From the NCBI RefSeq assembly GCF_044324785.1, contig NZ_CP172127.1: DNA of 64,000 nt. One strand, 5' to 3'. The DNA comes from Escherichia coli. GTDB taxonomy: Bacteria > Pseudomonadota > Gammaproteobacteria > Enterobacterales > Enterobacteriaceae. Shown one piece after another: positions 16,418 to 64,000 of this stretch (positions within the stretch are counted from its first letter, which is position 1; each line of letters begins with the position of its first letter). Position numbers and translations under genes: made by a program. Below the pieces are notes generated by a model. It worked only from the letters and a program-made list of their open reading frames with translations. It ran no database searches and was not told where the DNA came from.

Positions 16418-20125
<3,708 letters not shown>

Positions 20126-20128
20126 CGC

Positions 20129-20848
20129 TTATTCCCATGCATGAGGCGCAAAAAGATAGCCTTTGTTACGCACAGTTTTAATGCGATAAGGTTCTGCGGC
20201 GTTATCGAGCAGTTTTTTTCTTAACCGCGAAATAGCCACGTCCACGCTACGATCCAGTCCGTCATAACTGACGCCACGTAAATTTTTCAGCAATGCATCG
20301 CGGTCCATGATTTGCCCAGCATGGGTAGCTAATTCCCACAATAATTCGAAATCAGCTGTCGAGAGCGAGATTTCAGTGTTAGCCAGGGTGACTACGCGGT
20401 TGATAGGATCGATGGTCAACGTGCCGAAATGCAGGGCTTTGTAGGGAGTCAGAGACGTTTCCTGAAGACCTTTGCTCAGTGTGGCTTGCTCATTTTGACG
20501 CAAATGCAAACGTAAGCGCGCTAACAATACAGCAGGGGGCGTCGTTTTGAGAATATAGTCGCAGGCACCCATTTCCAGTGCCAGGATGTGGTTCATATCG
20601 CTATCGAGAGAGGTTAGAAGAACAATCGGTCCGGACCACTTTGCGCGTAAATCACGACAAATGGTCATGCCGTCCTTGCCTGGTAGCATGATATCGAGTA
20701 ACACCAAATCCGGATTTTCTCGCAGAATAGTTTCTTCGGCCTGGTCGCCGCGCGGCTCTACGGTAACCTGCATATCATGTTTTGCCAGGTACGCGGCAAT
20801 CAGTGAACCGACTTCCGCATCATCTTCAACAAATACGATAGTGTTCAT
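20129..20848 (-). CDS. rstA: OmpR-family response regulator RstA
   Basis: Start at internal Met MNTIVFVEDDAEV... giving 239 aa; receiver plus winged-helix. Confidence 0.9.
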   Translation of the reverse strand: MNTIVFVEDDAEVGSLIAAYLAKHDMQVTVEPRGDQAEETILRENPDLVLLDIMLPGKDGMTICRDLRAKWSGPIVLLTSLDSDMNHILALEMGACDYILKTTPPAVLLARLRLHLRQNEQATLSKGLQETSLTPYKALHFGTLTIDPINRVVTLANTEISLSTADFELLWELATHAGQIMDRDALLKNLRGVSYDGLDRSVDVAISRLRKKLLDNAAEPYRIKTVRNKGYLFAPHAWE

Positions 20849-30225: not shown

Positions 30226-31047
30226 TTATTTTTGCGACAGTTGATCCAGCTTGTCGCGAAAACCGGTAACAGAAATGGCCCGGTTATCGGCGCGCCAGCG
30301 ATCTTTCGCGGCAGGAGCCGAACTTTGCACCCCAATTAATTGCCAGCCGTCATCGGTATGCAACATCAGCGGCGAACCGCTGTCACCCGGCAAGGTATCG
30401 CACTGATGTGACATCACCGACGTTTGCGCCCAGCCAGTCACTTCACAGTTTTGATGACTGTACAACGTATCGAGATGATCTTCAGGGTATCCTGCCTGAG
30501 TCACTTTACGACCTGCCGCTTTTAATGCGGCGGTAAGCGCGGCTTTATCTCCCTCAAATAACGGCAACGGCGTAATGCCAGAAGGGGGATTACGTAGCAC
30601 AATCAAACCGAAGTCCCACGGCGCAGCTGCGGGAGGAACAATCCAACCATCCCCATCTGCTTTTAACCGCTTTCCCAGTGTCGGATCAACGCGGCCTTCT
30701 ATGTCGTGGATCTCATAGCGCCAAAGACCTTTATTTGACACGAAACGCAGCGCTACCGCTTTATCGGCTTTACCCTTTGGCGGCGTCAATAAACAGTGTC
30801 CTGCCGTTAATGCCAGATTGGGTGCAATCAGCGTCGCCGTACATAAATTGCCGCTGGCCGTTTCCAGTTGGCCAACCGCATCCCACGGTGATTGGGTCGT
30901 GTCATTCACTGGCACACGATCATCATGACCAAAAAACAGGGTGCTGACCTCATCGTTTGCCGATTTGGCAACGTCTGGTTTATCTGCAAACACAAAAGCA
31001 GACGTCAAACTAATTGCACCCAACACTACAGCAATGGTTGTACGCAT
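30226..31047 (-). CDS. ydgD: trypsin-like secreted serine peptidase
   Basis: ORF 273 aa with signal peptide; TAGHC and GDSGSPL catalytic motifs. Confidence 0.88.
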
Positions 31048-31146
31048 ATCACACTCTGGTGGGTAATTATGATTATTAAAAGCAAACCCTCATAAATACT
31101 ATAGACGGGACGGGATGAAAGTGGGAGTAAAATCAGATAACTACGA

Positions 31147-31230
31147 TCAGGAAAGATAAAAACGGGCGGCAATCAGTGCGCATAAAATAAGGATGATAAG
31201 AATGAACTCAAAGCGATAACGGCCCACCAT
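31147..31230 (-). CDS. ydgU: 27-aa hydrophobic small protein (MVGRYRFEFILIILILCALIAARFYLS)
   Basis: Not in ORF track (too short); ATG preceded by GGAGGG Shine-Dalgarno 4 nt upstream; single TM helix; recalled small gene in this interval. Confidence 0.6.
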   Translation of the reverse strand: MVGRYRFEFILIILILCALIAARFYLS

Positions 31231-31322
31231 ACTACCCTCCGCTAAAGGCGGTGCTAAACGTTACCCGCTTAGCACCGTAATTTTCAGGCGCGAGGGGGCG
31301 CGCCAGCATTACTGTTGAAAAC

Positions 31323-31631
31323 TTACGCTGCGGGTTGTGCAGCAGGTTTTGCCGGTTGCTGATGGCTGTGTTTCTTGGCGTGTTTCTTCGCTGCCTGCGC
31401 TTTTTGTTCAGGGGCTTTCTGTTCAGCTTTGGCATTTTTATGATGCTTTTTAGCCGCCTGCGCTTTCTGGGCAGGTGCTGCTTTATGCTGTTTTTTATGA
31501 TGTGTGGTTTTCGCAGGCGCTGCTTTGGTGGTCGTCGCAGTCGGAGCAGGTGTGGTCGCAGTCTCTGCAGCAAAGGCAGCAGAAGACAGACCCATAGCAG
31601 CGGCAACAACCAGAGCTAATACTTTTTTCAT
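31323..31631 (-). CDS. asr: acid shock protein, Lys/His/Ala-rich periplasmic
   Basis: Start at internal Met [21 protein letters not shown]... giving 102 aa; low-complexity repeats. Confidence 0.92.
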
Positions 31632-31734
31632 TGTCATACCCTCAATTTGTTTTTTCATTTAACCCCACTGCGGGGCCGTTGAAATAACTATATCCCTGGG
31701 AATGGCAGACTTCCGTGAGTGGTTGGTTTCAGCG

Positions 31735-31750
31735 TGTAACGATATGTACA
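31735..31750 (-). promoter_or_regulatory. RstA-box-like site upstream of asr (TGTACATATCGTTACA)
   Basis: Minus strand matches the RstA box pattern TACA-N4-GTTACA about 105-120 bp upstream of asr start. Confidence 0.4.
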
Positions 31751-32014
31751 AACGCTGAATAAATTACAGCATTGATAATAACGTATTGTGACTTAAGGAA
31801 AATTTAGCTACCAATAATAGTAGTCTTGATCGTGTTAACTATTTTACTACTTACAAAGCGGTAGAATAACTGCGCATCAGTAATAAATGACACACAGCAA
31901 AATGAATCCGTTTATTTGGGTACTTTTAATCCTGATGACACTAGATGCGCTGCGGGAATTGGCTGGCGCTTCGTCTATTTTAGGATGGCTATTAACGTTG
32001 GTTTGAGCAGGCAA

Positions 32015-32050
32015 TAAGTCCGGACGGGTATTTACCGCAGTCCGGACTTA
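32015..32050 (-). terminator. Terminator hairpin immediately after ynfM stop
   Basis: 11-bp stem TAAGTCCGGAC / GTCCGGACTTA with 14-nt loop; U-rich stretch follows on minus strand. Confidence 0.6.
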
Positions 32051-32054
32051 TTTT

Positions 32055-33308
32055 TCAGGCGTGCAGACGACGATGCAAACGCGTCCCGACCAGCAGAGCA
32101 ATGACCAGCATCAGAGCAATAAATGCGCCGACGCCGTTCCAGCCATAGTTATGCCAGAAAACACCACCCAGCGTCCCGGCAATACTCGACCCCAGATAGT
32201 AACTGAACAGATAGAGCGAGGAGGCCTGGCCTTTAGCGCGTTTTGCGCGGGGGCCGATCCAGCTGCTGGCTACTGAGTGGGCTGCGAAGAATCCGGCTGA
32301 GAAGAGTAACATTCCGGCAAAGATCAGCCACAGCGAGCTGAATAAGGTCATCAGTAAACCAAACAGCATAACCCCCGTCGAAAACAACATCACCGGACCG
32401 CGTCCATAGCGGGTGGTCATGGTTCCGGCTTTGGGTGAGCTCCATGTACCGGTCAAATAAGCCAGCGATAATAAGCCAACCACGGCCTGACTGACATGCC
32501 AGGGGGAGAGCATCAACCGATAGCCGATGTAATTAAACAGCGTGACGAACGACCCCATCAGCAAAAAGCCTTCTGCGAACAATAACGGTAATCCCCGGTC
32601 ACGCCAGTGCAGACGAAAGTTGATAAATAACGTCTTTGGTCGCAGGGAAGTCGGGCGAAAATGGCGTGATTCCGGGAGGATTTTCCAGAACATCAACGCC
32701 GAGGCCAGCGCGAAACAGCCGATAGCCGCCAGAGCAATTCGCCAGTTGAAAAAGTCCGTGAAGACACCGCTAATTAAGCGTCCGCTCATGCCGCCAATTG
32801 AGTTGCCGCTGATATACAACCCCATCGAAAAGGCCACGAAACTGGGGTGGATTTCCTCGCTAAGATAAGTCATGCCAACAGCTGCCACGCCACTTAACGA
32901 AAGCCCAATCAAGGCGCGCATAATCAAAATGCCGTGCCAGCTGGTCATCATTGTCGAAAGTAACGTACAAATGGAGGCCAACAGTAGCGCCGTGACCATC
33001 ACTGGTTTGCGACCAATGGCATCGGATAGCGGGCCAGTAAACAGCAAACCGATAGCCAACATCGCCGTGGAAATGGACAGTGAAATACTACTGTTCGCGG
33101 GCGTTAAGCCAAACTCTTGTGAAAGCACCGGAAGGATAGGTTGCACACAATAGAGAAGTGCGAAGGTTGCCAGTCCGGCAGAGAACAGCGCCAGGGTGAC
33201 GCGCATAAATTGCGGCGTACCGCGTTTAATAAATTGATTTGGCTGAGAAATGCTTTGCTTGTCAGTGTCGCTTGCCGGAGCGCCATCAACAGTTGTAGTA
33301 CGGCTCAC
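32055..33308 (-). CDS. ynfM: MFS transporter
   Basis: ORF 417 aa, 12-TM MFS pattern. Confidence 0.9.
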   Translation of the reverse strand: MSRTTTVDGAPASDTDKQSISQPNQFIKRGTPQFMRVTLALFSAGLATFALLYCVQPILPVLSQEFGLTPANSSISLSISTAMLAIGLLFTGPLSDAIGRKPVMVTALLLASICTLLSTMMTSWHGILIMRALIGLSLSGVAAVGMTYLSEEIHPSFVAFSMGLYISGNSIGGMSGRLISGVFTDFFNWRIALAAIGCFALASALMFWKILPESRHFRPTSLRPKTLFINFRLHWRDRGLPLLFAEGFLLMGSFVTLFNYIGYRLMLSPWHVSQAVVGLLSLAYLTGTWSSPKAGTMTTRYGRGPVMLFSTGVMLFGLLMTLFSSLWLIFAGMLLFSAGFFAAHSVASSWIGPRAKRAKGQASSLYLFSYYLGSSIAGTLGGVFWHNYGWNGVGAFIALMLVIALLVGTRLHRRLHA

Positions 33309-57370: not shown

Positions 57371-58316
57371 ACGCCCACTGGTTATAAACACGCAGCTGGC
57401 AATGAAAATTGGCTTAAACGAAGCCATTGTTTTGCAACAACTGCACTACTGGTTGAGAGATACCAACTCCGGCATGGAATGTGATGGTGTTCGCTGGATT
57501 TATAACACAACGGAACAATGGCTGGAACAGTTCCCATTCTGGTCAGAGTCAACGTTAAAGCGCGCGTTTGCAAGTCTGAAAACGCTGGGGCTTTTGCGTT
57601 GTGAAAAGCTCAATAAATCAAAGCGCGATATGACCAATTTCTACACGATCAACTATGGGAGCGAGCTTTTAGATGGTGGCAAATTGAGCGAATCCATCGG
57701 TTCAAAATGCGCCGCTCCATCAGGTCAAAATGACACGATGGAAGAGGTCAAAATGAAACGCTCCATTGATTCAAAACGACCCAATGTCATCGGGTCAAAA
57801 TGGCCTGATGATCTTACAGAGAATACAACAGAGATTACTACAGAGAATAAAAACACTTTTCGTCCGGAAGCTTCGCAACCGGACCCGCAGACGACTGAAC
57901 AGGATTTTTTAACCCGGAACTCCGACGCGGTTGTGTTTAGTGCGAAAAAACGCCAGTGGGGTAGCAGGGAGGATTTGGCGTGTGCGCAGTGGATCTGGGG
58001 GCGGATCGTGGGTCTCTACGAACAGGCAGCCAGTGATGATGGCGAGATCATGCGACCAAAAGAGCCTAACTGGACTGCCTGGGCCAATGACGTGCGCACA
58101 ATGCGGATGCTGGATGGCAGAAGCCACAGACAAATTTGCGAAATGTTTGGTCGGGTTCAGCGAGATCCATTCTGGGTAAAAAACATCATGAGCCCGTCAA
58201 AGCTCCGCGAAAAATGGGACGAACTGGTCATCCGCCTGGGACGTTCACCTGTACAGCGTTGTGTTAATCATATTTCTGAACCGGATACAGAAATTCCGCC
58301 TGGTTTCAGAGGATAA
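57351..58316 (+). CDS. phage replication initiation / replisome organizer protein (lambda O-like) containing the origin iterons
   Basis: ORF track frame 57297..58316; likely start at MSLLFAERPLVINTQLAMKIGLNEAIVLQQLHYWL...; iterons and AT-rich tract lie inside the coding sequence. Confidence 0.7.
   Translation: MSLLFAERPLVINTQLAMKIGLNEAIVLQQLHYWLRDTNSGMECDGVRWIYNTTEQWLEQFPFWSESTLKRAFASLKTLGLLRCEKLNKSKRDMTNFYTINYGSELLDGGKLSESIGSKCAAPSGQNDTMEEVKMKRSIDSKRPNVIGSKWPDDLTENTTEITTENKNTFRPEASQPDPQTTEQDFLTRNSDAVVFSAKKRQWGSREDLACAQWIWGRIVGLYEQAASDDGEIMRPKEPNWTAWANDVRTMRMLDGRSHRQICEMFGRVQRDPFWVKNIMSPSKLREKWDELVIRLGRSPVQRCVNHISEPDTEIPPGFRG
57699..57802 (+). repeat. Replication origin iterons: five direct repeats of GGT(T)CAAAATG at 22-25 bp spacing, followed by AT-rich tract 57810-57855
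   Basis: Repeats at 57699, 57723, 57746, 57768 and 57793, then ACAGAGAATACAACAGAGATTACTACAGAGAATAAAAACACTTTT. Confidence 0.7.
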
Positions 58317-58356
58317 GTGTTGATTTCAGGTCATGAGGTAATTTTAAGGGGGACTT

Positions 58357-58779
58357 GTGGCAAAAGTTTTTACACAAGAAGAGCGGGAAAAAATTAAATG
58401 GCAGGTGGTGGAACTCGTGCGCCAGAGCGGCCGTGAGACGTTACGGCAACTGGAAGCTAAAACAGGTGCGACTAGATATCTGATGAGCGTTCTTGCCAGA
58501 GAGCTGGTAGCCAGTGGCGATGTATACAACTCCGGCTACGGGTTATTCCCCTCTGAACAGGCGCGTAAGGACTGGCAAAACGCCCGCAAAAAACTCTCGA
58601 GGGCAAAGGTGAAGAAACCTGCTGTGGTTGATCCGGACCTTATCTGGTCATCACCTGACGGAGAAATACGTCGCTACGACAGTCGCCTAAACATAATCTG
58701 TCGCGAGTGCCGGAAGAGCGAAGTTATGCAGCGCATACTGGCTTTCTATCAGGGTAATTTTCAGGACGTGGCGCAGTGA
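58357..58779 (+). CDS. hypothetical prophage protein
   Basis: 140-aa ORF, basic, Cys pair CRECRK near C-terminus; no family recognised. Confidence 0.5.
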   Translation: MAKVFTQEEREKIKWQVVELVRQSGRETLRQLEAKTGATRYLMSVLARELVASGDVYNSGYGLFPSEQARKDWQNARKKLSRAKVKKPAVVDPDLIWSSPDGEIRRYDSRLNIICRECRKSEVMQRILAFYQGNFQDVAQ

Positions 58780-59222
58780 GTGCACCGGCAACCATTCTTG
58801 ATATGTGCTGTGGCAGCCGCATGTTCTGGTTCGATAAGTCTGACGAACGGGCGATATTTAGCGATATCAGAAAAGAAGGATACACATTACGCAATGGGAG
58901 ACGCTTGATTATCAGCCCTGACATTATCGCAGATTTTCGTGCATTATCATTTGCAGACGCATCTTTTTCGATGGTTGTATTAGACCCTCCGCATCTTGAG
59001 CGTGTTGGTGATAACGCCTGGATGGGAAAGAAATATGGACGGCTGAATAAAGATGCCTGGCGTGATGATTTGCGACAGAGATTTAAAGAAGCTTTTCGGG
59101 TGTTGAGGCCGCACGGCGTTCTGATTTTTTAATGGAATGAAACGCAAATACCGGTAAGCCAGATTCTGGCACTGACAGATAGAAAGCCTGTTATCTGTCA
59201 ACGAACAGGGAAAAAACGATAA
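58776..59222 (+). pseudogene. putative SAM-dependent DNA methyltransferase interrupted by an in-frame TAA
   Basis: Motifs ILDMCCGSR and VVLDPPH; TAA at 59130-59132 after ...VLIF, then 29 more in-frame codons (WNETQIPVSQILALTDRKPVICQRTGKKR) before a second stop. Confidence 0.5.
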
Positions 59223-59394
59223 AACCCACTGGATTATTTTTATGAAAGAGGCATCCAGTGAGTAGATTCGTAAGGTTACAGATACGTATATCTGAATAAT
59301 TAAATTCAGTTCTGTAAATAAAACTTAATCCTTAACCGGATGGATTTCTGCACCCTCAGAACATCAGGAGGCCGCCCGAAAGGGCGGTAGTGAA

Positions 59395-60030
59395 ATGCGA
59401 AAGTTCAAAATTATTATTGAAACGGGAATAGCTGGTGGAGATTTTGAGGATGTATTCGAAGTGGACGATGACGCAACACCTGATGAAATTCATGACGGAG
59501 CATAAGAAATTTTCTTTAACTACTGCAATTACTCATACCACGAAATAAAAGACGATGAGGAAGAACAAAGTGGCTGATTTTTGTTCAGCTAAATATAACA
59601 TCAGTTTTGAAGAGCGGGATGAACTATTAATGGACTATGGTGAGTTACGCGGTGGAAGTGCTGCTGATGTCGAATCCTAGCGTGATGACTATGAAGCGGG
59701 AAAAACTCCGGTCGAAGCATATTGTGAGGAGTGGGGCGATGAATGAGCGAGATTAATTATCAGGAAGGGCATGAAACGGCGGGGCAAGCAAAACCAGTGA
59801 CATGGCGATATCGCTACGTGAAAAAAGGCGTTACGGACTTTCAGGGGAAGTAGTGGTCTGGTGACTGGAAATATGTACCGAAAAAAGAGGATTGTAACGA
59901 CAGGCCGAACTATCAAATTCAGGCCTTATTCACTGCCTCACCAGTCCCGGTTACATCAGAAGAATTGGTTAAAGCTGTGCACTTTTATGAACAACTAAAA
60001 CGCGAAAATCCACCAACATCCGGCAACTAG
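59395..60030 (+). pseudogene. cluster of short ORF fragments in shifting frames, likely decayed prophage gene(s)
   Basis: Successive 15-60 codon ORFs separated by stops and frame changes (MRKFKIIIETG..., MRKNKVADFCSAKYNISF..., MSEINYQEGHETAG..., ...KYVPKKEDCNDRPNYQIQALF...). Confidence 0.4.
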
Positions 60031-60284
60031 ATTAATGGGTTAACTATGTCGGTTAAACGACCAGCCAACTGAAAAAGCGGAAACCTGATTACAGGTTGCC
60101 AGATAAGGCAATGAGCTACCTGGCGCGGAACGGACTGATAAGTATGGGGAATGTTTTACGATGAACCTTTAGACTAAAGAGTTTGTAACGCTATGTAAGT
60201 GATTTTTTCTGGTTTAGATATTTATATGTCCGGCCAAATTGAGGTGTGTTTAAATGTAATTGCACATTGATTGTAGGAGGAATA

Positions 60285-60464
60285 ATGAAAAACGCATTGC
60301 AGTTTTTGTTTGTTGCGTTCTGGTTGTTCGCATCATGTATGCCCATCATCTTCACAGCAAGGTATATGGAAAAAGTTGATGTTTTGATATTAATATTTGG
60401 ATATATAAATGCCCTTTTTTTAGGGGTGTTCATGGCGGTCATGTGCATTGAATACTGGCGGTAA
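60285..60464 (+). CDS. unrecognised 59-aa two-helix membrane protein
   Basis: ATG preceded by consensus AGGAGG at 60275-60280 (4-nt spacer); product MKNALQFLFVAFWLFASCMPIIFTARYMEKVDVLILIFGYINALFLGVFMAVMCIEYWR; AT-rich context. Confidence 0.55.
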   Translation: MKNALQFLFVAFWLFASCMPIIFTARYMEKVDVLILIFGYINALFLGVFMAVMCIEYWR

Positions 60465-60798
60465 ATACAGCGAACTCCATTGGTTTAGTTGGATATTTAC
60501 TGTGCTGGACAAAAACGGTTTGCGGGGAAATCTTAGTTAAGTAGAATGACTGCGGGTGCTTGAGGCTATCTGCCTCGGGCACGAACACCAACGGCAGGTA
60601 GAGAAAAGCCCCAGTTAACATTACGCGTCCTGCAAGACGCTTAACATTAATCTGAGGCCAATTTCATGCCAGACACATGTAGGTTAGCCTCTTACGTGCC
60701 GAAAGGCAAGGAGAAGCAGGCTATTGTTAACACCAAGCTGTAATGTCCCCTTTGAACCATTCTAAAATGTCCCCAGACAATTCTCTGGGGGATTTTTC

Positions 60799-61764
60799 AT
60801 GACCAAAGAAACTGTTACGATGAGTCATAAGGAACTCCACCGACTTCAGATTATTCAGGAGTCAATTAATCGACATATTACTCAGGAACAAGCTGCGGCA
60901 CGCATTGGCATTTCTATTCGGCAGGTTAAACGTCTGGTGCAACGGTATAGAAATGAAGGGCCTTCTGGTCTGGTTTCCCACCGACGTGGAAAGCGTCCTA
61001 ATAATTCCTTTTCTACTGAATTCAGAGCAACAGTAATTTTACTCCTCAAAGGCCGTTACGCTGATTTTGGACCTACGTTTGCGTGCGAAAAATTGCGCGA
61101 GATACACGGTTTATCTTTATCCGTTGAAACTCTCAGAAAGTGGATGATAGAAGAGGGGGGTATGGCGTGAACGCCGTCGTAAAATTGCCCGTATATATCA
61201 ACGCCGCATGCGACGACCATCTTACGGTGAACTGATCCAGATTGATGGCTCACCTCATGACTGGTTTGAAAATCGAGGCCCCAGATGTACACTGATCGTT
61301 TTCATTGATGATGCCACCAGTGCGTTGATGGCGTTGCGTTTTGTGCCTGCTGAAACAACCCGGGCTTACATGGAAACCCTCCGGGGTTACCTTAATGATC
61401 ATGGCGTACCGCTCGCTCTCTACTCTGATAGACACAGTATATTCAGGGTAAATAACCCAGAGCGGGAAGGTGAGCTGACCCAGTTCACTCGTGCGATAAA
61501 GACACTGGGCATCGAGCCAATCCATGCCAACAGCCCGCAGGCAAAAGGGCGGGTAGAGCGCGCCAATCAGACACTACAGGACAGGCTGGTCAAAGAAATG
61601 CGGCTTCAGAATATCAGTGATATTGAAACAGCAAATGCATGGTTGCCGACCTTTATTGAAGCCTATAACAACCGGTTCGCTACGTCGCCTCGTACTACTG
61701 ATAATGCTCATCTTGATGTGCACCATTCTGAAGAGGAACTGGGTTATATCTTCAGCCTACAGGC
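60799..61764 (+). pseudogene. IS481/ISNCY-like DDE transposase gene (HTH plus rve core), frameshifted at a G6 run and interrupted by IS903
   Basis: ORF 60799..61170 (HTH) and frame-shifted ORF opening at 61151 (…IQIDGSPHDWFENRG…RVERANQTLQDRL); frames would fuse if the G6 run at 61155-61160 were G5; coding sequence broken at 61764. Confidence 0.7.
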
Positions 61765-62821
61765 GGCTTTGTTGAATAAATCAGATTTCGGGTAAGTCTC
61801 CCCCGTAGCGGGTTGTGTTTTCAGGCAATACGCACGCTTTCAGGCATACCTGCTTTCGTCATTTTGTTCAGCGCTCGTACCAGGGCCATAGCCTCCGCAA
61901 CCTGACCATCGTAGTCACGCAGCGTCAGTGAACCCCCGAACAGCTGTTTTACCCGGTACATCGCCGTTTCCGCTATCGAGCGACGGTTGTAATCTGTTGT
62001 CCATTTCCACCGCGCATTACTCCCGGTCATTCGCTGATTAGCCACTGCACGGTTACGGTCTGCATATTCACCGGGCCAGTAACCCGCACCTTTTCGGGGA
62101 GGGATAAGCGCGCTGATTTTCTTACGCCGCAGTTCATCGTGACATAGCCGGGTATCGTAAGCGCCATCGGCGGCGGCTGACCTGATTTTCCGGTGGGTTT
62201 GCCGGATTAACCCGGGGAAGGCCTCTGAGTCCGTAACGTTGTTCAGCGACAGGTCAGCGCAGATGATTTCATGTGTTTTACTGTCAACGGCGAGATGCAG
62301 CTTACGCCAGATACGGCGGCGTTCCTGGCCATGCTTTTTGACTTTCCACTCGCCTTCACCGAAGACCTTCAGCCCGGTGGAATCAATTACCAGGTGTGCG
62401 ATTTCACCCCGGGTGGGCGTTTTGAAACTGACATTAACCGACTTTGCCCGCCTGCTGACACAGCTGTAATCCGGGCAGCGTAGCGGAACGTTCATCAGAG
62501 AAAAAATGGAATCAATAAAGCCCTGCGCAGCCCGCAGGGTCAGCCTGAATACGCGTTTAATGACCAGCACAGTAGTGATGGCAAGGTCAGAATAGCGCTG
62601 AGGTCTGCCTCGTGAAGAAGGTGTTGCTGACTCATACCAGGCCTGAATAGCTTCATCATCCAGCCAGAAAGTTATGGAGCCACGGTTGATGAGGGCTTTA
62701 TTGTAGGTGGGCCAGTTGGTGATTTTGAACTTTTGCTTTGCCACGGAACGGTCTGCGTTGTCGGGAAGATACGTGATCTGATCCTTCAACTCAGCAAAAG
62801 TTCGATTTATTCAACAAAGCC
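61765..62821 (-). mobile_element. IS903-type insertion sequence (1057 bp) with 9-bp target site duplication CCTACAGGC
   Basis: Terminal inverted repeats GGCTTTGTTGAATAAATC at both ends; identical 9-bp direct repeats at 61756-61764 and 62822-62830. Confidence 0.9.
61821..62789 (-). CDS. IS903 transposase (IS5 family)
   Basis: ORF 322 aa (…AKQKFKITNWPTYNKALINRGSITFWLDDEAIQAWYESATPSSRGRPQRYSDLAITTVLV…), recognised IS903/IS102 transposase; true start may be a few codons in. Confidence 0.88.
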   Translation of the reverse strand: MKDQITYLPDNADRSVAKQKFKITNWPTYNKALINRGSITFWLDDEAIQAWYESATPSSRGRPQRYSDLAITTVLVIKRVFRLTLRAAQGFIDSIFSLMNVPLRCPDYSCVSRRAKSVNVSFKTPTRGEIAHLVIDSTGLKVFGEGEWKVKKHGQERRRIWRKLHLAVDSKTHEIICADLSLNNVTDSEAFPGLIRQTHRKIRSAAADGAYDTRLCHDELRRKKISALIPPRKGAGYWPGEYADRNRAVANQRMTGSNARWKWTTDYNRRSIAETAMYRVKQLFGGSLTLRDYDGQVAEAMALVRALNKMTKAGMPESVRIA

Positions 62822-62830
62822 CCTACAGGC

Positions 62831-63206
62831 GAAGCGCGTTCTGTCTAAAAATCTCACTTTCCAGTACAAAAGCAGTGCGTTTCAGGTACGCAGTGAGGGC
62901 CGGGGATATCGACTTAGGCATTCGGTTGTTACTGTATGCGAGAACTTTGACGGTGAAATTAACGTTCTGTATGACGGGAAAGCGCTGGGCTGGGAAAAGT
63001 ATGTTGATGGCCCGGAGCCTATACCACTGGATGATGAAAAGAGTGTCCATGAACGAGTGGATAATGCCCGTATTGATTTACGCTCAAAATACTATGTTAA
63101 ACCTAAAGCTGACCATCCCTGGCTTACGCGCCGAACGCAAAGTCATCAGCAAGTTAAGCCCCCGAAGTTACCTAAAAAGAAGCCTGATCCCGATAAAAAA
63201 GATTGA
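62831..63206 (+). pseudogene. 3' part of the IS481/ISNCY-like transposase gene displaced by the IS903 insertion
   Basis: After removing IS903 and one TSD copy the reading frame continues from 61764 into 62831 (…SLQ|AKRVLSKNLTFQYK…) to a stop at 63204-63206. Confidence 0.7.
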
Positions 63207-63601
63207 AACCAAGATCGATTCGGTTGAGTGCATATCCATTCATAGGGTAGATTCTTAAGTCGCGTTTCTGGTGTTCATTTTCGGGTGGTTTGTTACTTGT
63301 TTTACCGGGGATATGCCAGAAACGCGCTGAGTCAGTCTGGGCGGTGCGCGTAATGAGGCGTTATGGTAAATAGCCTATGCTAATGTCCGCTAAGAGCAAG
63401 AAGCGGAAGTTGGCAGTTTTGTGGACTGTCCCCACAAATGTGACTACAGAAATAGTTGCAATTCATAATTGATCATGGGTTGTCAGTTAAACTCGTGGCG
63501 ATTTAAATAGACTAATTGGGAGTGCGTCCATTACTTATATCTTGTAATGTTAACTATCAGAAATGATACAAAGATAATATGTCTTTAAAGAAAAGGCTGA
63601 T

Positions 63602-63628
63602 GGCGAAAAGTGGCCCGATGAGGGCCAC
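63602..63628 (-). terminator. Rho-independent terminator after flxA
   Basis: GTGGCCC-tcatc-GGGCCAC hairpin followed by TTTTCGCC on the minus strand. Confidence 0.7.
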
Positions 63629-63642
63629 AATACGGCTGTCAC

Positions 63643-63975
63643 TTAGACGTAAATATCAATGGTGCCAGCGGTATTTGTATCGTCTTTTTTCTCTTCTTTT
63701 TTATCAGGCTGAACTGTCGCGTCTTTATTCTTTTTCTCTGCCTGCTGCCTTAACAACTGCTCCAGTTGAGCCCTGAGGCTTTCAATTTGCTTCTGTACCA
63801 ATGCAGCCATTTCTTTTTTCTGCTGTGTCGTCATCCCCTCTTCCGATGAGATTTTCCCAAGCTTTTCAGTCAGCACCTGAATTTGTCTTGTGATTTTGGC
63901 TATTTCTGATGTTCCTTCCGGGGCGGAGTTGTTTGAAATAACGGTTGAGGTATTTCCCTGAATTGTGACAGACAT
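63643..63975 (-). CDS. flxA: Qin prophage protein FlxA
   Basis: ORF 110 aa (MSVTIQGNTSTVISNNSAPEGTSEIAKITRQIQVLTEKLGKISSEEG…), recognised FlxA. Confidence 0.88.
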   Translation of the reverse strand: MSVTIQGNTSTVISNNSAPEGTSEIAKITRQIQVLTEKLGKISSEEGMTTQQKKEMAALVQKQIESLRAQLEQLLRQQAEKKNKDATVQPDKKEEKKDDTNTAGTIDIYV

Positions 63976-64000
63976 AGATTTCTCCTTTTAAAAAAGCACT

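Follow-up and report, generated by a model that had tools for sequence, protein, structure and literature searches.

The 16-base element that reads TGTACATATCGTTACA on the minus strand at 31750..31735 of the window (the whole stretch of DNA that was analysed, 64,000 nucleotides in length) is almost certainly the operator for RstA in the asr-samT promoter of E. coli, which is acid-inducible and depends on sigma70. On the plus strand, positions 31735-31750 read TGTAACGATATGTACA. This RstA box of the asr promoter has already been published and is well characterised, and its identification brings no new biology; it is the same as the published E. coli box in sequence, strand, position and target gene, with no difference. 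What is added here is that the link between RstA and asr does not vary in position or orientation over about 26 genus-level groups of Enterobacterales, and that the DNA from the box to the -35 region is constrained as strongly as the box. The first-pass annotation, which was made from the letters alone, had pointed to an RstA-box-like site on the minus strand upstream of asr; the sequence is present there, and its recognition shows that a real operator can be recovered from raw sequence alone. The site is of some consequence, as it defines the RstA consensus, its Klebsiella counterpart was used for the RstA-DNA crystal structure, and the asr promoter is in wide use in synthetic biology to sense pH.

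The site and the genes connected with it are the following:

31735..31750, minus strand: RstA box of the asr promoter; full site TGTACATATCGTTACA, core TACATATCGTTACA
31323..31631, minus strand: asr, 102 aa; NCBIfam acid_shock_Asr at 99.1 bits against a cut-off of 50, and the annotation of strain N3
31147..31230, minus strand: ydgU/samT, 27 aa; NCBIfam small_YdgU at 70.3 bits against a cut-off of 24
20129..20848, minus strand: rstA, which encodes the response regulator for the box; NCBIfam equivalog at 484.6 bits against a cut-off of 330
18824..20125, minus strand: rstB, the cognate sensor kinase; NCBIfam equivalog at 832.9 bits against a cut-off of 478

The presence of rstAB in the same window, also claimed earlier, is borne out by these family models, both of which score above their cut-offs. 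The end of the rstAB locus lies about 10.9 kb from the box; as the regulator acts in trans, this proximity is mechanistically irrelevant and adds nothing to the identification. In strain N3 the gene order is ynfM, a tiny ORF, asr, ydgU, ydgD, mdtIJ, tqsA, pntBA, ydgH and ydgI, followed by folM, ydgC, rstA, rstB and tus. The 441-bp intergenic stretch between asr and ynfM is 100% identical to that of N3 and is present in 5422 of 5426 complete E. coli genomes.

The full site is situated 104-119 bp 5' of the asr ATG (31631, minus strand), which corresponds to -55 to -70 from the transcription start (+1, 31680). Its 14-base core TACATATCGTTACA occupies 31748..31735 (minus strand), or -68..-55, and is centred at -61.5. 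Within the core, the TACA half-sites at 31748..31745 and 31738..31735 (minus strand) form direct repeats 10 bp apart (TACA-N6-TACA). The published RstA consensus is TACATNTNGTTACA, in which the tandem TACA repeat is required, and E. coli asr is said to carry the canonical repeat (PMC4117788). The core agrees with this consensus at 12 of the 12 specified positions. The pattern TACA-N4-GTTACA, by which the site was first noticed, is a correct form of the RstA box; the published form is stricter, and the site fits it fully. With no mismatch allowed, TACATNTNGTTACA is found only at this site (31735-31748, minus strand) in the 64-kb window. TACA-N4-GTTACA has two matches in the window against 0.14 expected, a count that was reached in none of 100 dinucleotide-preserving shuffles, and with one mismatch to the consensus allowed two matches arise in 3 of 100 shuffles.

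The position of the box agrees with the published organization of the promoter, in which the RstA box is placed at -77..-55 and a PhoB box at -39..-22 (PMC9026648). The range -77..-55 is taken from this secondary source, whose numbering is internally consistent with the sequence of the window. The window derives from a strain other than K-12; the 129-bp wild-type asr promoter given in Table S6 of PMC9026648 is nevertheless identical, at every base, to window positions 31632..31760 (minus strand). The same source describes a 9-bp spacer from the PhoB box to the -10 element and adenines at -17 and -13 in the wild type; this spacer length and these two adenines fit only the succession CTCACGGAAGTCTGCCAT / TCCCAGGGA / TATAGT, which sets +1 at the A of 31680 and the -10 element at 31692..31687. 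The elements of the promoter are thus as follows:

31735..31757, minus strand: published RstA box region, -77..-55 (PMC9026648, mapped via the 129-bp promoter)
31710..31734, minus strand: conserved block, -54..-30, CGCTGAAACCAACCACTCACGGAAG, delimited by information content in orthologues
31702..31719, minus strand: published PhoB (Pho) box, -39..-22, CTCACGGAAGTCTGCCAT (PMC9026648)
31687..31692, minus strand: -10 hexamer TATAGT, -12..-7, preceded by the PhoB box and the 9-bp spacer TCCCAGGGA
31680, minus strand: start of asr transcription (+1, A), as it follows from the numbering in PMC9026648

The core, at -68..-55, therefore falls within the published RstA region (31757..31735), at the place given for it in the first-pass annotation, and the PhoB box is a separate element downstream (31719..31702). 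Judged by its sequence, the asr promoter has a near-consensus -10 hexamer (TATAGT) and no recognisable -35 hexamer. A scan of 31200-32100 with the two sigma70 hexamers found no promoter, in keeping with one that lacks a -35 element and depends on an activator. The spacing from the box to the -10 hexamer is constant in the orthologous promoters checked for spacing.

Conservation of the site was assessed in 80 asr loci, retrieved with an alignment of Asr homologues from contigs representing one genome per species. These loci belong to about 26 genus-level groups of Enterobacterales, among them Escherichia, Citrobacter, Salmonella, Klebsiella, Raoultella, Enterobacter, Leclercia, Siccibacter, Serratia, Yersinia, Pectobacterium, Brenneria, Rahnella, Edwardsiella and Izhakiella. 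TACA-N4-GTTAC is found in the orientation of asr in all 80 loci, with its 5' end 114-122 bp from the ATG (129 bp in one locus). Elsewhere in the 808 kb of these loci, both strands included, the motif does not occur, against about three matches expected by chance. A 16-bp weight matrix was built from 25 unique orthologous sites, those of Escherichia and Citrobacter and one identical Raoultella site being left out. On this matrix the window site scores 24.4 of a possible 27.7 bits and ranks first among about 128,000 positions; the runner-up, at 60184, reaches 15.4 bits, all others reach 8.5 bits at most, and the maxima of 200 shuffles have a mean of 12.4 bits (sd 3.2). In E. coli itself, a segment of 44 nt spanning the box is present in exactly one copy in 5421 of the 5426 complete genomes, with at least 99% identity in 5252 of them.

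Information content was calculated for 27 genus representatives whose sequences were anchored on the box, with the following averages:

-128..-72, upstream of the box: 0.12 bits per position
-70..-55, RstA box: 1.61 bits per position
-54..-30, adjacent block: 1.58 bits per position
-29..-14, spacer: 0.32 bits per position
-12..-7, -10 hexamer: 1.39 bits per position

In these representatives the onset of conservation is abrupt, at the TG that precedes the box. This bears on a 7-bp inverted repeat around the box (TTCAGCG at 31758..31752 and CGCTGAA at 31734..31728, minus strand), which is perfect in the window and could be read as a hairpin or palindromic operator. The DNA of its upstream arm is unconserved, at about 0.1 bits per position, and in most genera the downstream arm is CGCCGA, so that the repeat is specific to E. 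coli. The inverted repeat was rejected as a functional element for the lack of conservation of its upstream arm; it is probably fortuitous as far as can be told from the sequences, and the probability that it forms the operator is negligible.

The second match to the RstA box in the window is the following:

60184-60197, minus strand: second RstA-box-like site, TACATAGCGTTACA; differs from the consensus at one position and scores 15.4 bits with the matrix of orthologous sites

This site is embedded in a degenerate Qin-like prophage region, identified via strain IAI1, with dicA/dicC, pseudogenes and an ISEsa1-like transposase fragment nearby. It has no intact gene directly downstream and is probably a chance match. 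The surrounding part of the window, about 58000-64000, is not collinear with N3, which has ydeE, eamA and the mar genes there; it consists of AT-rich prophage and IS remnants, as in strain IAI1.

[quoted passage not shown] The RstA box of asr goes back to the genomic SELEX study of Ogasawara et al. 2007, according to the papers that cite it (PMC4117788, PMC6824119, PMC9026648), and a genome-wide list for EHEC (Table S4) prints the asr motif as 'taca atcgt taca'. In AIEC strain LF82, an asr promoter fragment was shifted by RstA in EMSA, and binding was lost when the box was deleted or scrambled. The primers of the LF82 assay map to window positions 31699..31876 (-19..-196), and the mutagenic primer GTTTGGCGCTATCGTTACACGCTG changes exactly the upstream TACA to GCGC. 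RstA was also found to bind Pasr in a DRaCALA assay (PMC13425233, 2026 NAR). In the same study, purified RstA with sigma70 holoenzyme activated an asr template (-250..+50) in vitro, and expression of a Pasr fusion at pH 5 was shown to depend on RstB-RstA (PMC13425233). There, asr and the downstream samT (ydgU) are described as an operon whose products feed back on RstB-RstA, the samT peptide acting on RstB (PMC13425233). Transcription of rstAB itself is under the control of PhoQ-PhoP.

A match of a short motif by chance, with no regulatory role, was the simplest alternative to an operator. The motif is indeed short, and a near-perfect second copy with no obvious target gene sits in the prophage remnant (60184-60197). 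However, far fewer than one exact match to the consensus would arise by chance in the window, position and orientation are invariant in 80 of 80 loci while the DNA upstream is unconserved, and the published mutation of the box abolishes RstA binding. On the strength of these conservation data and of the published EMSA, mutagenesis and in vitro transcription, a chance match is excluded for practical purposes, its probability being minimal.

As an RstA operator, the site most likely operates in the following manner. At acid pH, once rstAB transcription has been raised by PhoQ-PhoP, a dimer of RstA, a regulator of the OmpR/PhoB family, would occupy the two TACA half-sites at -68..-55. The bound dimer would then activate RNA polymerase at a promoter with a good -10 element and no usable -35 element. 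A centre at -61.5 points to class I activation, which is probable as judged from position only and would proceed via the alpha C-terminal domain or via the conserved DNA that separates the box from the -35 region; this DNA would join the RstA-polymerase complex.

In the older phoBR model, PhoB rather than RstA is the main direct activator of asr, and the TACA repeat plays an accessory part or serves another regulator. RstA boxes and Pho boxes are both tandem direct-repeat operators of OmpR/PhoB-family regulators, and one of the latter is annotated at -39..-22 of asr; the Pho box differs from the RstA box in its CTGTCAT repeats, its 11-bp period and its overlap with the -35 region. This Pho-box-like element overlapping the -35 region, which in E. 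coli agrees with the Pho consensus at 12 of 18 positions (3 of 7 in the first half and 6 of 7 in the second half, CTGCCAT), speaks for the model, and dual control by PhoBR and RstBA is still described in papers. On the other hand, RstA alone with sigma70 holoenzyme suffices in vitro, expression at pH 5 needs RstB-RstA, and the second Pho half-site in genera other than Escherichia is close to random (a mean of 2.8 of 7 matches in the 27 genus representatives), whereas the RstA box is invariant. The conserved CTCACGG of the first half agrees with the Pho half-site at 3 of 7 positions, and conservation of both Pho half-sites in the orthologues was not found for the -39..-22 element. It is thus very unlikely that PhoB is the main direct activator. 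As the second half-site CTGCCAT is not kept outside Escherichia, comparison of the promoter sequences suggests that direct control of asr by PhoB may be lineage-specific.

Whether the site might serve mainly OmpR, or OmpR and RstA in common, was also considered, because the two regulators recognise similar GTTACA/TACA motifs. The conserved GAAAC adjacent to the box, which we take to resemble the OmpR half-sites of ompF/ompC, is counted in favour of OmpR. At the csgD promoter, a site with the same TACA-N6-TACA arrangement is bound by RstA, which regulates there at acid pH, and this DNA motif is reportedly common to RstA and OmpR in the regulation of csgD (PMC13425233); csgD is, however, another promoter. 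Against OmpR, the same in vitro system used asr as target for RstA and omrB as target for OmpR (PMC13425233), asr is presented as an established RstA target that requires RstB-RstA for its induction by acid, and the sources consulted contain no report of OmpR control of asr. An operator used mainly or jointly by OmpR is accordingly given very little probability, and the reading of the site as an RstA operator is retained.

The block at -54..-30, directly downstream of the box, is 25 bp long and has the consensus CGCCGA(A/T)ACCAA(T/A)(C/G)ACTCAC(G/T)GAA. It is as conserved as the RstA box and is unexplained by the published promoter annotation; as the conservation of the two is equal, the RstA box is not the sole constrained upstream element of asr. 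The published Pho box (-39..-22) overlaps just the last ten bases of the block and was rejected as its explanation, because the half-sites are poorly matched or not conserved. The sigmaE -35/-10 consensus and the proximal subsite of an UP element were compared with the block by eye, and neither fits. It is possible, though rather doubtful, that the block is a second operator, either a weak cooperative site for an RstA dimer or the site of another conserved factor; such an operator would bridge the box at -61.5 to RNA polymerase. A weak cooperative RstA dimer site is conceivable because the hexamers TGTACA, GTTACA, GAAACC and ACTCAC follow one another at intervals of roughly 10 bp. Independent binding of RstA at the block is disfavoured, since the EMSA fragment held the block and yet the change of the upstream TACA removed all binding.

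The closest characterised relative of the site in another genus is the asr box of K. pneumoniae, on which the DNA-binding domain of RstA was crystallised, with two protomers on the tandem repeat and sequential binding (4NHJ, PMC4117788). It is the orthologous operator, with half-sites 10 bp apart and at the same distance from asr. The site of the K. pneumoniae structure is reported as an imperfect TACA/TACT repeat, whereas the E. coli site is a perfect TACA/TACA. This description is fitted by one of the loci collected here, L066 (TACATTCCGTTACT). K. pneumoniae ATCC 13883 was found to possess two asr-plus-samT-like operons (L030 and L066), each with a box at the usual distance; that of L066 is the imperfect TACA/TACT, and that of L030 is the canonical TACATTCGGTTACA. 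The L030 box conflicts with the claim that K. pneumoniae asr has no classic TACA-N6-TACA box (PMC4117788).

Downstream of the promoter, the asr leader contains a predicted structure:

31661..31677, minus strand: 5'-terminal stem-loop of the asr mRNA, +4..+20, GGCCCCGCAGTGGGGTT; minimum free energy hairpin of -9.0 kcal/mol

The predicted stem is GGCCCC/GGGGTT. Of 47 unique orthologous leaders, each folded separately, 46 are predicted to form an equivalent hairpin at +3 to +5, with stems and loops that vary. RNAalifold returned no consensus structure for the leader alignment, since the loops are of unequal length and the alignment, being ungapped, is not in register, and no family was matched in an Rfam search of 31000-32100. 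The stem-loop may act as a stabiliser of the asr mRNA. Three in-frame ATGs (31658, 31637 and 31631, minus strand) lie ahead of the Asr signal peptide; the annotated start, 31631, is the ATG behind a GAGGG Shine-Dalgarno sequence, and the upstream ATGAAAAA motif is kept in many Enterobacteriaceae leaders.

On the other side of the box, about 185 bp beyond it and divergent from asr, there is an ORF of 23 aa (MTLDALRELAGASSILGWLLTLV) at 31935-32006 on the plus strand. It is named 'KPN_01571 family protein' in some E. coli annotations, and its score of 33.6 bits is just below the NCBIfam cut-off of 35. The ORF is followed by a hairpin that is common to the end of ynfM.

Two asr paralogues per genome are found in species of Enterobacter, Raoultella, Yersinia and Serratia (locus pairs L037/L046, L050/L051, L038/L042, L044/L045, L013/L081, L024/L028, L049/L078 and L067/L074), and each paralogue of these pairs has retained an RstA box, a conserved block and a leader hairpin of its own.
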